A stretch of DNA of 64,000 bases from Escherichia coli (GTDB lineage: Bacteria > Pseudomonadota > Gammaproteobacteria > Enterobacterales > Enterobacteriaceae), in assembly GCF_030013205.1 (NCBI RefSeq), contig NZ_CP122648.1, one strand, 5' to 3'. Made by a program: the position numbers. The number at the start of each line of letters is the position of its first letter. The stretch's first letter is position 1. Below, one piece after another: positions 26,501 through 32,500 of this stretch.

Positions 26501-29500
26501 CTGCTGCGCTTTCTGGTTACCGGGCATCACTTTATGCGCCGATGTGGTTTTATCCTGCTCCTGCGCCGCCTGCGTCGTTTTCTGCGGCGTGCCGTAAATG
26601 CCTTTAGGTTTTCTGTTAATGGTCAGCTTAGTCATGCTTTGCCCCATCGTTTTTACTGATTGCTACGTTGCCCAACGGCACTGACACAACATTCTGTTTT
26701 CATTTTTAACATTCCTAATTTTTTAATTCCTCACCTGCTGCACAGTGAAAATTTATGAAGTTAATAACAATATGATTTTAAATGTATTTTTAAGTACTCA
26801 CTTTTTAATCCTTATATATACGCAAAAGTGAGGTAAATAGTTAAGTTTTAGTTAATATCTTGCATGGTGTGTTTTTTAACCTACCTGTTATTTTTATTAC
26901 CTCATTTCTATTAACTCACCATTCCTCACTTTTGTTCCTCACTTTTTGTTATTCCCGTCCTGCTCCTCACCTGTTTTTCTTGTTGTTGTAATGTCTTGTT
27001 TTACAATATGTTTTTCATTCCTCACTTTTTGACCTATATACAGGTGAGAAAGTGAGGAGTGGCGTTGATTTTTTGTTAAATTACCCGCCATCCTCACTTT
27101 TGCTCCTCACTTTTTACAGTGGGCGCACATAATCACCGTCAATAGCGATTACGCCGTCGCTTTCCAGCTTGTACAGCCAGCGCCGGAAGTTTTTCATTTC
27201 ATACCCCAGCTTTTTCATATCATCGCGGAGAAGGGCGATAGTGCACGCCTCCCCGTGTGCTGTTCGCGTTCTGATGCACTGCCATAGCGCAGCGTGATTT
27301 TCCGTCTTGTTCCCGGCCTCCTCGATGCGTTCCAGTTCAACAGGTGGGCGCGGCTTATCCACAACCACCAGCGACGTGATTAACTCCCCGTCAGTGTCGG
27401 TAAAAAGCTCCACCACGCGTAAATCATATGCAGCCTCTTTCAGTTCCTCCGCGTCCTTCATTTTGGTGCAGGAGATAACCAGGGCTTCACTGTCCGCACC
27501 TTCACGGCGAATACGGTATTCAGCGTCCAGAGATGCACGAAATGCACTGGAACCACGCGCCCCTTTTGTTTCATCCTTGCCGGAATGGTGAACCACCAGT
27601 ACCGTGGCCCCCGTGCGTCGTTTCAGTTCGTCACATCCACGGATAAACGCCCCCATATCCCGCGCGTCATTTTCATCATTACCGCCAAAGCAACGCGCCA
27701 GCGTATCCAGAATAATCATGCGTACCGGTTTACCCGTTTCCCGTTCAACCTGACGGGAAGCGATGACCATTTCATCAACATCAAGCGGGACCGCCGGAAA
27801 AATCGGGCGGTTTACCAGGTACAGATTTTTCACCCGTTCATCATTAACGATTTCCCATGCTTTGATACGACGAGGGACACCAATGCCACCTTCACCGACG
27901 ACATACATCACCGAACCATGCGCCACCCTGCGGCCTCCCCAGTGGCGACCCGTGGCAACATGACACGCCCAGGAACACGCGAGGAACGATTTATAGGAAC
28001 CGCTCGCGCCGTATGTGCTGCACAATGAATTAGCCGGAATCACGCCCTTAACGACATAATCAAGCTGTGTGTCGTACCCTGCAGATCCAATACTCATTGG
28101 TAGTGTGGTTTTTCGCTGGTCGTTTTTTTCTTCCTCTGGTATCTCTCCGGACAGTCTTTTCTGGCGCTCTCGTTCCAGATATTCGCGCCACTCCTCGCGT
28201 TTCTGGCTGTGCATTCCCTCGGGGTAATAATTCGCATCCCGTACACCTGCCGCCGCCAGCTTTTGCCCGATGGCGTTAATATTTGACGGCTTGATGTGGC
28301 CTGCCTTGTACAGCCGGACACAATAGCGACCATCGTCGATAATTTTCAGGTCTGCCAGTTCGTCAAGCTGGCTGTCTCCCAGCCATACAGGCGGCACGTT
28401 GTCGCCAGCAAGTCGCCCGTCCTGCTCCTGCCACTGTTTCGCGTGCGCCCAGGCATCACTACCCGCAAAAATAATGACTTCGGTCATTTTGTCGTGTGGC
28501 TGTTTTTTTAAGTTCGGTGCCAGTTTCATTTTGTGCCCCTGAATGCGTTAATCATGTTTTTCATTTTCTGAATATTTGCCCGTGCCTTTGCGTTGCTGGT
28601 GGGCTGTTTGCATGGCGTGGCCTGTATCAGTGAAAAATCACGCCGGAACTGATAAACAGGCATCACGCAGTCATATTCGTACCCATCACGGCGGTAAGTA
28701 ACGCACCGTCCCGCCACGCTTTTAATCGTTACAGTGCCGCCGTATTTATCTTTGAAAATATCGCCGGGGCGGATTTCAGGCCGAGAGAGACCGCTGGCAG
28801 TAAAGCCAGAATTTTTCTTTTTCATGGTTTTTTACTCCTGCGTCTTGCTCTGAATTACCTGATAACCGCAATCGGTCAGCAATTCGATAAATTCCGGCAA
28901 TGTGCCGAAACAGCAATTATCACGCATACGTTCGCGGGATACCTCAACGCCGTTTTCGTAGTGACTCACCATGCGTCCGGTAAAATGCAGATCATCATCG
29001 TGATGGCACGTTGACGGCTTAATCAGTCGCGCACGTTCTGCCAGCTCCAGCAATGCTTCAACACTTCCGGCAATTGCACCATCCGGCAGGCGATAATTAC
29101 TTACCACGCGTCCATTCTCCACATTGACCAGTAGCTGCCCGGTAAATTTCTCATCAAACTGAATGCTGTTAAGGTCAGAAATTGACAGGTTATGCATGGT
29201 GCACCTCCTGGCGAATACGGGCGGCGAATACCATCACGCAGCCATCAGGAGATTGCTGGCGTGCTTCCTGTTCGCTGGTGGCCTCGATGTGAATCACGCG
29301 CGGTTGTGCCGTACTCAGGGCGATAAAACGCCAGATAAAATTGTTTTCGCATTTCTGAATAAACAGCGTGTTTTCTTCGCGCCCTTTCCATGTTGCCGAG
29401 ATATAGCCCATGCCATTGAGCATCTCGCAGGCATCAACCAGCGTATCAGCGGCTACGTGTACAGTGTTTTTACCGTCAGCTATGCAATCACGGTGCACCG

Positions 29501-32500
29501 CCAGGAAGGTGTATATAAATTTAGGGTGAGTTTGGGTATGCTGTGTTCCAGCCATAATCGTTACCTCATTTAACGGTTTGGTTAGAAGCCCCGTTACTGC
29601 TCCAACAGTGCGGGGCTTCGTCGTTTCAATTGCTGAATTGCATGTATCAGCCCTTGTGGTATTCAGATTACATTTTGGTGAATACCATTTCAAGTCTTTT
29701 TTGGTATTCACTTTTGTATTACACTGCATCCCGTTATTAATCGGAGGTGCAAACATGTCCACGAGTTCTGTTAACAATAAGTCACAGCAACTGAATGCCA
29801 GATTTCCACATGAAGTAGTGAGTGGCATTGAGGCATCCCTACAGCCAGGGGAAACTAAAGCGAATTTTATAGTTACGGCTGTACGCGGTGAGATCGCCCG
29901 CCGCCAGGCAGAAGGAAGCGGAGAAAACCCCCTGGTTTCTTCGCTCGATGCGCTGGCGCAGGTGGAAAAAATCGGAGTCAAAGCTGCCGAGGAGATCGGG
30001 CAGCTCGTCACCGTCGCACGTGAAGAACTCCAGCGCCGCAAGGCCAAAGAATCAGAATAATAACTATCATCGCCGTGGTGTGAGGAACTCCGGCGCATTG
30101 CTTTACAGGTACACAGAATGACCAACAAAGAATCAACCAAAACACCATCACCAACTCGTAAGAGACGACGCAAAAATATAGCGCATGAACATGAATCAGA
30201 AAGATTCGCACCTTGTTCGTTTGCTCTTGAGAAATTCCTTAAAGAGCACAGGAAAAAGCTCTCGTTGCAAACCTTGGAACGAACCAAATCTGACTGATCA
30301 CATTGCCCACCAGCCGCAAATGTGGCATTGTTGGTGATGCGTTCAAGTATGTAGCTTTTCCACTGGCGGCTCTCTACGGTCGCCTTTGTTTTATCCAGAA
30401 CGAAATCAGACATCAGATTGATCAGCACCTGGCGACCTGACAAAATCGCATCAGTCGCGCCACCAGCAAAATTTTTTGCTTTCCGGACGGCGTGACCAAC
30501 GGCATTTTGCAGCAAAATATTCTGCATTTCTGGCGTGCTGTAGTAACGGTGATCAGCGCCTTCACTCTGTGCGACCACAACGCTATAATCTGCCTCGTAG
30601 ACAGTAAGCAATATGGCGCAGTAGGCTATTCGTTCACAAAGGCGCTCCGGCAACGGGGCGCTTTTTGTTATGTTCATCGCGTTACGCCTCACACCATTAC
30701 GCAGCCGTTCCGCGCGCTTCTTCCTCGCGTTCTTTCAGCCAGGCCAGCACCTCATCTTCATACCAGCCAACACGACGCAGACCGATTTTGAAGCCTTTCG
30801 GGAATTTTCCGGCGTTGATCATGTCCTGTAGCGAACTGTCTGCCTTGATGCGCAGAATATTTTTTACTTCCTGACGGGTAAGGATTTTTCTGATTGTTTC
30901 CACTATGTTTTACCTCGTTAATCCGGCGTATTCCGGTGATAAATACGGTAAAACAGGGCAGGGCGGGAAAAACAGTACCCACCGTTTTAAAACGGTACCC
31001 ACTGTTTTTTATCTCATTGATTACGCTTTTCTTTTTGCAAAAAAATAGCGACCGCAAAGGGCCGCTATTGTGATTACCGCTTCCACTTCTTAGGTCGTCC
31101 ACCGCATTTAAGGCTGGTGGGTCTCAGCACCTTGTCGATGCTTTCAGCCAGATTTTTCGATGCGCCACGCGAGCGCAAAAAACTGACTACCTCGTGTTTT
31201 GTGGGGGCTGTTGATTTGTCTTCCGGATCGTACGTTGACCAGAATTCACGATTTGCCATTAAGGCCAGTTGCAGGCCTTCGCCGTAGGCGGTGGTATTTT
31301 GCATAATAGAATTTTCATATACTCCGGCCTTGTCGTTAAATTTGTGGCAATTATACGATGGTTTGGCATGGTTTTCACTGGTTGCACTGGCTTTTTGTAC
31401 AGTTACACGGCACGGATACCCCTTTTACCACTGGCTATGGTCACTCCGGTAGCTGCGGCCTCTACAAATTCCCCCCACCAGCGCATAAGCACCACGCGCT
31501 TTTCCAGGTAGTTACTTCGGTTATATGCTCGCCTTACCTCGTTCGTGTCCACGTGTGCGAGTGCGGCCTCGATTACGTCCGGCTCGAATCCTTCCTCGTT
31601 CGCTGCTGTACTGAATATGGCGCGTAATCCGTGAGACACCAGCACACCAGCGTATCCCATCCGGCGCAATGCAGCGTTAGCGGTCTGGCTGCTCATTGGC
31701 AGCATTGGATTTTTAAGGCTGGGAAAAACATGTTCCCTGTGTGCGCTGATTGGCTTCATTGTTTCCAGTACAGCCATCGCCTGACCGCAAAGAGGGATCA
31801 CATGGTCACGGCGCATCTTCATGCGTCCGGCTGGAATCGTCCAGGTTTCGGCATCGAGATCTATTTCTTCCCAGCGTGCGGCGGCTGCTTCGGCTGGGCG
31901 TGCTACGGTCAGCAGTTGCCACTCAATCAGCAATCTGGTTTGCCGTTCTATGCTGGCGACCGATAAATCGTGCATTAGCTGCGGTAGCTGTTCCGGTCGG
32001 ATGGTTGGCATGTGCTTTTTGGTGGGTGAGGGGAATGCCTTGCGGACGTTCGCGGCGGTGTTGATGTCAATCAGCCCACTGTTGGCAGCAAAATCCATCA
32101 CTTCATTGATGCGTTGTAAAACGCGTTTCAGGGTTTCCAGGTTGCCGCGTGCTTTAATGGGTGTGAGTATCTCAACAAAGCGGCGAGCTGTGAGGGTATC
32201 TATTGGCGTGTTTCCGATGTACGGGAATACGTATTTTTCCAGGGATCGCCAGATATCCTTAATCGTGTTGTAAGCCAGATTCTGGCCTTTTTTCATCTCG
32301 TACCAGTCCGAGGCAACTTTTTCGAACGTGTTGCCCTTTTTCCGACTCTCTGCTTCACGTTTCCGGCGTTCGTGGTCCTGTGGGTCAACTCCCTTCGCTA
32401 TGAGTGACCTGTATTCATTCCGTCGTTCTCTGGCATCGGACAGGGAAACATCATTCAGCGATCCGAGGCTGATGATAGTCCGTTTTTTATCTGCCGGGCG

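Follow-up and report, generated by a model that had tools for sequence, protein, structure and literature searches.

An early gene module with Icd-family and DUF4222/RgdR-family members lies directly upstream of rep in an EcCICFT073-type satellite of Escherichia coli ETEC4079

EcCICFT073 is the model Gram-negative PICI, in which AlpA is the activator of the PICI cycle and transcription of alpA is the target of the helper signal (Fillol-Salom et al. 2018, PMC6092414). The helper signal in that island therefore acts upstream of the equivalents of the three genes described here. EcCICFT073 interferes with lambda; the 2018 paper did not identify the responsible genes, and called the switch-on of Gram-negative PICIs unclear (PMC6092414). 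EHEC O-island 51 (OI-51), which encodes RgdR (ECs1581), shares partial homology with the EcCICFT073 region (Flockhart et al. 2012, PMC3378721). RgdR-type proteins alter T3S and motility in EHEC: the tested members, ECs1581 and C1493, which are the only ones for which this has been shown, activate LEE1/T3S and also repress motility. T3S dropped when the chromosomal rgdR copy was deleted and recovered with a low-copy plasmid. DNA binding by RgdR is weak and non-specific, and a natural CGD variant fails at T3S activation (PMC3378721).

In the immI operon (c4-icd-ant) of P1, icd is annotated as 'inhibitor of cell division; apparently required for expression of ant', and expression of the downstream gene depends on icd translation. 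P1 c4-icd-ant and P4 kil/eta are translation-coupled switches. In ECOR61, a prophage-encoded growth arrest is triggered by the phage gene orf24 (Silas et al., bioRxiv 10.1101/2023.04.06.535777). Suppressor transposon insertions fell in a 366-nt Icd-like gene and the next two small genes, and removal of the Icd-like gene abolished the growth arrest; this gene is reported as the likely effector, while reconstitution took six genes and gave a weak effect (preprint 10.1101/2023.04.06.535777).

We analysed a 64,000-nucleotide stretch of the E. coli ETEC4079 genome (the window), in which the initial annotation had described three ORFs of 121, 121 and 99 aa on the minus strand upstream of rep (genes 1, 2 and 3; Table 1). 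The ORFs lie exactly where this description puts them, and all three genes show coding-type substitution (codon position 3 > 1 > 2). The genes are tightly packed directly upstream of rep, which encodes a RepA-type helicase, and as previously noted none contains a recognisable catalytic motif. They belong to an island with int, AlpA, rep, ProQ/FinO and PerC genes, inserted at tRNA-Pro beside yejM. On the annotation of NZ_CP122643.1, between yejO and tRNA-Pro/yejM, we found the features used to recognise a PICI: int, alpA and pri/rep in the same orientation, a size of about 13 kb, a dedicated attachment site, and no lysis or tail genes. The late genes include a protease-like gene, a transglycosylase gene and a gene with a TerS-like N-terminus. 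Genes 1-3 make up the early module of this satellite, a PICI of the EcCICFT073 type, and the satellite context proposed initially is upheld by the gene content and by the early layout shared with EcCICFT073.

The two islands share the order int, AlpA, divergent YlcI/YnfO, Icd-like gene, small ORFs, DUF4222 gene (C1493 in EcCICFT073) and replicase gene, the 4-nt overlap with the replicase gene, and a PerC gene further on. Identity between them is 74% in the Icd domain, 70% in DUF4222 and 63% in the Rep N-terminal domain. They differ in the form of Icd (121 aa in the window, 66 aa in EcCICFT073), in the small-gene block (one tandem-repeat gene as opposed to four helical 73-77-aa genes), in the replicase (RepA helicase or primase), in the attachment site (tRNA-Pro by yejM or roxA/phoQ), and in the late region, where the window has protease-like and transglycosylase genes and EcCICFT073 has capsid and decoration genes.

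Table 1. Positions in the window of the genes and sequence elements between alpA and rep
Feature	Position	Strand	Evidence or detail
alpA, AlpA-family HTH	30697-30903	-	Pfam Phage_AlpA, 4.5e-8
Stop-free frame, 514 codons, continuous with gene 1	29193-30734	-	ATG at 30677 after GAGG
YlcI/YnfO-family gene, 101 aa, divergent	29755-30060	+	NF041551, 1.3e-16
Three copies of TGAATACC / GGTATTCA	29658-29710	.	Read from sequence; divergent control region
Two-tier GC-rich hairpin, then TCTAACCA	29579-29619	-	Conserved
Gene 1 SD, GAGG	29564-29567	-	Sequence
Gene 1, 121 aa	29190-29555	-	ATG start; GAGG 8 nt upstream
Gene 2, 121 aa	28832-29197	-	8-nt overlap with gene 1
Gene 3, 99 aa	28526-28825	-	Stop overlaps rep ATG by 4 nt
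rep, RepA-type helicase	27114-28529	-	AAA_25, 3e-44

The order int, AlpA, divergent YlcI, Icd-like gene, small genes, DUF4222 gene and rep was fixed in 13 of 13 E. coli loci. We put at about 60% the probability that the three genes form an early PICI module in which an Icd growth or division inhibitor, a tandem-repeat protein and an RgdR-type regulator are co-expressed with rep. Gene structure, family membership, conserved order, coupling and distribution are observed, and the biochemical activities in this reading are inferred. Genes 1-3 would be expressed together with rep once the island is switched on, which would occur via helper-induced AlpA as in the model island, and gene 1 would stop host growth or cell division during island replication, like P1 Icd. 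About one in three complete E. coli genomes carries parts of the module. Should these functions hold, helper infection would bring a growth or division inhibitor, a host-gene regulator and satellite replication into play together, and would link phage attack to bacterial physiology and virulence.

It is very improbable that the ORFs are instead decaying, functionless remnants of a cryptic element, although gene 1 is annotated as a pseudogene ('missing N-terminus') in RefSeq and the exact three-gene combination (at >=80% of length) occurs in only 11 of 5,426 complete E. coli genomes. The RefSeq call reflects a 495-aa form of the gene 1 frame that is also present in databases. Substitution is of the coding type in all three genes, the overlaps and coupling are intact, and parts of the region are present in 1,839 of the same 5,426 genomes. 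The assembly collection has a near-identical 121-aa Icd allele indexed in 1,682 blocks, and the genes next to it were the same in 10 of 10 cases among the matches listed. Searches of 50,697 phage genomes with tblastn gave no match to genes 2 and 3, and the sole match to gene 1 was vB_KppS-Ant, a 16.5-kb satellite-like record.

All three genes had been described as unassigned, which holds for gene 2 only. Gene 1 matched the Icd-like family NF033153 of NCBIfam with 80.6 bits (6e-23, aa 73-116), where the cut-off is 25 bits and P1 Icd itself scores 52.6 bits, and it aligned with P1 Icd at 43% identity over 42 aa (E 9e-7). On these sequence matches, gene 1 is an Icd-family member homologous to P1 Icd. 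The Icd-like domain makes up the C-terminal ~50 aa and is preceded by an N-terminal extension of ~70 aa. Substitution at codon positions 1/2/3 was.045/.042/.097 in the N-terminal half and.037/.063/.12 in the Icd domain. We considered whether gene 1 consists of two tandem copies of the Icd domain and rejected this: the two halves were not significantly similar (hhalign probability 1.9%), and their Smith-Waterman score was matched or beaten by 261 of 2000 shuffles. Only the motif of the first strand recurs (FIYTFLAV and FIWRFIAL; E 0.034 against P1 Icd).

The P1 gene and gene 1 resemble each other in their homologous, NF033153-matching domain and in being small ORFs at the front of an operon leading to replication genes. 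In contrast to P1 Icd, gene 1 has the 70-aa N-terminal extension and is the end of a 500-codon open frame, and no ant gene follows it, though some relatives carry antA upstream. A further difference is that at gene 1 a conserved hairpin occupies the position of the C4-type antisense RNA, for which RF01695 gave no match, either island-wide at E<=1 or within 29520-29780 at E<=10. A C4/CI-like antisense RNA upstream of gene 1 was accordingly rejected. A weak match to the Rfam 'sar' family (16.8 bits; gathering score 43) is at chance level.

The initial annotation suggested that the early position of these genes pointed to helper sensing or interference. The ECOR61 system gives part of this suggestion a published counterpart in a phage-triggered response. 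Like the window, it has a 366-nt (121-aa) Icd-like gene that overlaps the next small gene in an operon with a replication gene, there a DNA primase. This likeness to gene 1 is one of size, name and layout only, and the small genes that follow in ECOR61 encode 61 and 63 aa and do not correspond to gene 2. That genes 1-3 sense, derepress or interfere with the helper phage, in the manner of P4 epsilon or the SaPIs, would fit their position early in a satellite operon, the response of the ECOR61 module to a phage accessory gene and the interference of EcCICFT073 with lambda. We nevertheless consider it quite unlikely. No antirepressor, interference or defence family was found among the Pfam, NCBIfam, PHROG and PADLOC matches of the three proteins, and PADLOC matched none of them to a known defence system. 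In EcCICFT073, moreover, the helper targets the transcription of alpA, which lies upstream of these genes, and the characterised orthologue of gene 3, C1493, regulates host genes and not phage genes. Sequence searches retrieved no solved structure for any of the three proteins.

The three genes had also been placed first in their operon. They do lie directly upstream of rep, but their position at the head of the operon is doubtful, as alpA is upstream on the same strand, the gene 1 frame is open back into the 3' end of alpA, and a scan between gene 1 and the divergent gene found no sigma-70-like promoter. This stop-free frame, which links alpA with gene 1 and has the YlcI gene antisense inside it, is the most unusual feature of the locus. 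An identical 495-aa protein is annotated as Icd-like in NCBI. Of 13 E. coli relatives, 11 retain an open frame of 220-600 codons from alpA to gene 1: at these loci the Icd frame had 0-1 stops in 223-586 codons, and the other two same-strand frames had 9-45 stops each. It stays open over differing sequence, including YlcI alleles of 59, 60, 100 and 101 aa, extra plus-strand genes and unalignable spacers, and a Klebsiella element has the same arrangement. In minimal elements an SD and ATG lie 8-11 nt past the alpA stop.

The long frame does not behave as a conserved protein. We found no Pfam domain in ten diverse long forms, and codon-position substitution upstream of gene 1 was not coding-like, with no amino-acid-level selection detected there. 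Among the long-form proteins the 121-aa block is nearly invariant, with few positions that differ, and their overall identity to the window frame goes down to ~55%. The motifs KTKAT and SAPLPERL of the long frame are reverse complements of plus-strand intrinsic terminators, and their conservation is at the DNA level. Within the frame, the substitution pattern of the YlcI gene indicates that it is the plus-strand frame that is under selection, and its product, judged by the sequence pattern, is probably a ribbon-helix-helix regulator. The repeats TGAATACC / GGTATTCA are candidate operators for a postulated binding protein. The hairpin and TCTAACCA are 24 nt upstream of the gene 1 ATG; this hairpin is present in 14 of 14 loci, where 28-35 nt separate its end from the Icd start, with compensatory changes in 2 of 9 consensus pairs and no family match in Rfam.

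These observations bear on a different view of gene 1, in which it is mainly a translated leader. Ribosomes would start just past alpA and translate a frame ending in the Icd domain, and this translation would let transcripts from the alpA promoter escape Rho-dependent termination on their way through the antisense YlcI cassette to genes 2 and 3 and rep. The locus would then work as a translation-coupled switch like P1 c4-icd-ant and P4 kil/eta. We hold this view only tentatively; it is compatible with a cell-division role of the Icd domain. It would account for the near-absence of stops in the Icd frame as opposed to the other frames, for the persistence of the open frame despite differing YlcI alleles, extra genes and spacers and in Klebsiella, for the lack of amino-acid-level selection upstream of gene 1, for the start sites just past alpA in minimal elements, and for the negative intergenic promoter scan. 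The annotated requirement of P1 icd in ant expression also speaks for it. However, gene 1 has a good SD and ATG of its own, and it is intact in two loci where the long frame carries a frameshift (L011) or an insertion (L007). Moreover, many of the loci share common ancestry and are not independent, and an open antisense frame within the plus-strand genes is not very improbable by chance (0.1-0.9 per allele). The antisense frame of K-12 ylcI, in a lambdoid prophage, is open too.

A possible, though doubtful, extension is that the conserved gene 1 terminates a long 'spacer' frame whose amino-acid sequence is immaterial and whose openness is what is required. Ribosomes loading just past alpA would then translate 220-600 codons, crossing two opposite-strand terminators, the antisense YlcI cassette and the divergent control region; transcription from the alpA promoter would be carried into the Icd-rep operon, and YlcI would be shut down by convergent transcription. 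The on-switch of the island would be a translation-coupled, antisense-overlapping bistable device, of which the conserved hairpin and TCTAACCA would form part. The open frame from alpA to Icd offers a concrete model for the switch-on of Gram-negative PICIs. If true, this model would explain the discord among annotations of the 'Icd-like' gene, which appears as a pseudogene and in 66-aa, 121-aa and 500-aa forms.

Gene 3 matched Pfam DUF4222 (PF13973) with 87.4 bits (gathering score 27) and was 69.7% identical to C1493 over all 99 aa. By profile and alignment, gene 3 is a DUF4222/RgdR-family protein with the full-length 99-aa architecture. It has the length, the DUF4222 domain and the genomic neighbourhood of RgdR, but differs in having PGD at residues 20-22, where RgdR has RGD, and its host is an ETEC strain. 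Most members of the DUF4222 family have PGD, and the CFT073 protein has RGD. Substitution at codon positions 1/2/3 was.134/.111/.23. The structure model of gene 3 is a Tudor/KOW-like barrel with a basic C-terminal helix, which matched the RNA-polymerase-binding Tudor domains of UvrD, PcrA and CarD and also the KOW domains of Spt5 and RfaH; in a viral fold library it matched only uncharacterised and DUF1653 proteins. Within the proposed early module, gene 3 may serve as a cofactor of transcription that contacts RNA polymerase or nucleic acid and not a specific operator.

The 4-nt overlap of the gene 3 stop and the rep start was kept in all 13 E. coli loci, whichever type of replicase follows, which indicates that gene 3 is translationally coupled to rep. 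Because of this coupling, gene 3 would be made in step with the replicase. The first ~130 aa of Rep are common to the primase-type replicases of related islands, and six other replicases, which are annotated as several types, showed 43-77% identity in this domain. The invariant ATGA overlap with rep and the homologous N-termini of these replicases would be expected if gene 3 were a replication accessory protein, for example one that helps at the origin by binding it or that partners the Rep N-terminal domain. The effects on host T3S and motility would in that case be side effects of overexpression. We find this unlikely. The T3S phenotype of the chromosomal rgdR deletion and its low-copy rescue argue against an overexpression effect, and distant DUF4222 proteins adjoin xis in lambdoid prophages, away from replication genes. 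A Klebsiella relative (L015) has an Icd-like gene and a primase in which the Rep N-terminal domain is retained, but lacks a DUF4222 ORF of recognisable size ahead of the primase, and gene 3 is thus not essential to the module. Gene 3 also lacks homology to known loaders or initiator partners. Profile searches, proposed initially as a check in which homology to housekeeping replication accessory proteins would count against a helper-related role, returned no such homology for the three proteins.

Unlike genes 1 and 3, gene 2 has no Pfam or NCBIfam family name. It belongs to a narrow family, with no fold match and a structure model of low confidence, and its substitution at codon positions 1/2/3 was.078/.046/.127. 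A match of a 1,558-aa protein to gene 2 in 15 stretches (P0316) was discarded as spurious, the protein being a Cys-rich repeat protein. In all of these islands a variable small-gene block lies between Icd and DUF4222, and gene 2 is one cassette of this block; its product would most likely bind a host or helper protein. Gene 2 itself is a tandem duplication, with two copies of a ~55-aa beta-beta-beta-alpha unit, and in one locus (L003) a single-domain 66-aa paralogue adjoins it.

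The three small minus-strand ORFs reported upstream of rep (121, 121 and 99 aa, numbered here in transcription order) were confirmed at their positions. Substitution rates at codon positions 1/2/3, computed against related loci, were.045/.042/.097 in the N-terminal half of gene 1 and.037/.063/.12 in its Icd domain,.078/.046/.127 in gene 2 and.134/.111/.23 in gene 3. Third positions take most substitutions in each, and genes 1-3 are real genes. The initial annotation had left all three unassigned, which holds for gene 2 only, as gene 1 belongs to the NF033153/P1 Icd family and gene 3 to DUF4222.

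Coordinates of features in the window
Feature	Position	Strand	Remarks
RepA-type helicase	27114-28529	-	directly downstream of gene 3
Gene 3	28526-28825	-	99 aa; stop shares 4 nt with ATG of rep
Gene 2	28832-29197	-	121 aa; starts 8 nt before end of gene 1
Gene 1	29190-29555	-	121 aa; GAGG 8 nt ahead of ATG
Stop-free frame	29193-30734	-	514 codons, gene 1 back to 3' end of alpA; GAGG and ATG at 30677
Hairpin	29579-29619	-	two-tier, GC; followed by TCTAACCA
Repeats in divergent control region	29658-29710		TGAATACC/GGTATTCA, three copies
Unannotated 59-aa ORF	30118-30297	+	coding-like substitution pattern
Intrinsic-terminator hairpins	30365-30384, 30638-30665	+	T tails; downstream of YlcI-ORF59 unit
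Direct repeats	30969-31002	-	GTGGGTACCGTTTT and GTGGGTACTGTTTT; just upstream of alpA
Terminator	31044-31069	-	precedes GTGGGTACCGTTTT/GTGGGTACTGTTTT repeats
DUF2213 ORF	24080-24763	-	
RefSeq 'NUDIX hydrolase' ORF	24828-25415	-	

The island carrying these genes (~13 kb) lies between yejO and tRNA-Pro(GGG)/yejM, and encodes int, a small ORF, an AlpA-family HTH protein, divergent YlcI/YnfO, genes 1-3, RepA, ProQ/FinO, PerC, a DUF2213 protease-like gene and a 679-aa transglycosylase. All 13 E. coli loci compared, among them EcCICFT073, the model PICI of Gram-negative bacteria, have the same early order of AlpA, divergent YlcI, Icd-like gene, variable small-ORF run, DUF4222 and replicase. Of 5,426 complete E. 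coli genomes, 1,839 contain parts of the query region, and only 11 the exact three-gene combination. The proteins of genes 1-3 had no BLAST-level match in 50,697 phage genomes, bar one 16.5-kb satellite-like record. As a module, these genes combine known parts in a new way, inside a satellite family that is itself known. The 16.5-kb record, 'Escherichia phage vB_KppS-Ant' (L015, LR881103.1), has the appearance of a capsid-forming PICI.

Residues 73-116 of gene 1 matched NCBIfam NF033153 with 80.6 bits (cut-off 25), and share 43% identity with P1 Icd (E 9e-7), which the P1 record describes as an inhibitor of cell division apparently required for ant expression. Icd is 66 aa long in EcCICFT073, whereas the window protein has 121 aa, with a 70-aa N-terminal extension. 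This 121-aa block varies at few positions across database proteins that, further upstream, drop to ~55% identity to the window frame. The assembly collection indexes a near-identical allele in 1,682 blocks, and its neighbours are the same genes in 10 of the 10 places shown. A preprint on strain ECOR61 reports that the phage gene orf24 sets off a growth arrest and that suppressor insertions are located in an Icd-like gene (QOYT01000045.1:9309-9675; 366 nt, hence 121 aa) and the next two small genes; the effect is abolished without the Icd-like gene, and was rebuilt only with six linked genes, including a primase (bioRxiv 10.1101/2023.04.06.535777). The ECOR61 gene was matched to gene 1 on size, name and layout. 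The initial annotation pointed out that genes at this position in satellites often have helper-sensing or helper-interference functions, and for gene 1 the ECOR61 system lends helper sensing indirect support; host growth arrest is the better-supported role for gene 1.

Gene 3 scored 87.4 bits against Pfam DUF4222, and all of its 99 residues align with C1493 of EcCICFT073, at 69.7% identity. Both C1493 and RgdR, its orthologue in EHEC, are activators of LEE1/T3S; RgdR also represses motility, as do engineered variants, its DNA binding is weak and non-specific, and a natural variant with CGD at residues 20-22 is T3S-inactive (Flockhart et al., PMC3378721). Gene 3 has PGD at these residues, as do most family members, and its predicted structure is a five-stranded barrel with a C-terminal helix (core pLDDT 88-93). 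Control of host or island transcription is better supported for gene 3 than helper sensing, which we consider unlikely and rank below both this role and growth arrest. The 4-nt overlap with the replicase start is found in 13/13 loci, although the replicases that follow differ (RepA helicase, D5-type primases, DUF927). Their N-terminal ~130 aa are homologous throughout; here the RepA helicase shares 43-77% identity with the D5-type primases, DUF927 protein and primase-like protein of related islands. Recombination exchanges the catalytic part of the replicase and retains this N-terminus.

The two halves of gene 2 are homologous to each other (hhalign probability 97.6%, E 2.9e-12), and at one related locus (L003) a single-domain 66-aa paralogue adjoins the gene 2 homologue. 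The family is tiny, with 23 representatives in 1.84 billion proteins. Its place in the variable small-ORF block suggests that gene 2 is an exchangeable accessory cassette.

Gene 1 is probably not the operon head in the simple sense first proposed: alpA lies upstream, a promoter scan of the interval from gene 1 to YlcI found none, and the frame is open into alpA. The alpA gene of EcCICFT073 is induced by the helper phage, and its product activates the alpA promoter as well as genes downstream of it (PMC6092414). The Icd frame contains 0-1 stops in 223-586 codons at 11 of 13 E. coli loci (the exceptions are a frameshift in L011 and an insertion in L007), compared with 9-45 apiece in the two remaining frames of that strand. 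This arrangement recurs in the Klebsiella element L015, where an unannotated YlcI-like 67-aa ORF (8982-9185, -) lies antisense within a 324-aa Icd-ending ORF. In the window the long frame is antisense to YlcI and the 59-aa ORF, the wobble positions of both strands coincide, and the substitution pattern there is that of plus-strand genes. The 59-aa ORF matches, at 69% identity, a hypothetical protein of 57 aa whose gene follows YlcI in the CFT073 and L002 annotations. Substitution patterns gave no sign of amino-acid-level selection on the frame upstream of gene 1, and its two conserved 'motifs', 'KTKAT' and 'SAPLPERL', are encoded by the reverse complements of the plus-strand terminators. An open antisense frame inside plus-strand genes is not very improbable; the significant part is the ~216 codons outside any gene. 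Since it is open in 11/13 loci without such selection, the frame is apparently maintained in an open state, whatever it encodes. The simplest reading, offered as a hypothesis, is that transcripts from the alpA promoter would reach the Icd-rep genes by translation-coupled read-through, as is established for P1 c4-icd-ant and P4 kil/eta.

Of the features described, this conserved open frame, the hairpin ahead of gene 1 and the repeats resembling operators most merit an experiment. The hairpin lies at a fixed distance ahead of the Icd start in 14/14 loci, with some compensatory changes, and matched no Rfam family; its tail shows what we take to be a loose likeness to rrn-type boxA (8/12 bases). 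The TGAATACC/GGTATTCA copies form two inverted pairs with a common central copy, 16 and 13 bp between neighbours, and are candidate operators of the ribbon-helix-helix-like YlcI. The GTGGGTACCGTTTT/GTGGGTACTGTTTT repeats may be AlpA autoregulation sites.

Elsewhere in the island, the 'NUDIX hydrolase' and DUF2213 ORFs match positions 409-544 and 115-326 of the same 545-aa PHROG. As they are different parts of one profile in permuted order, the NUDIX label looks doubtful.
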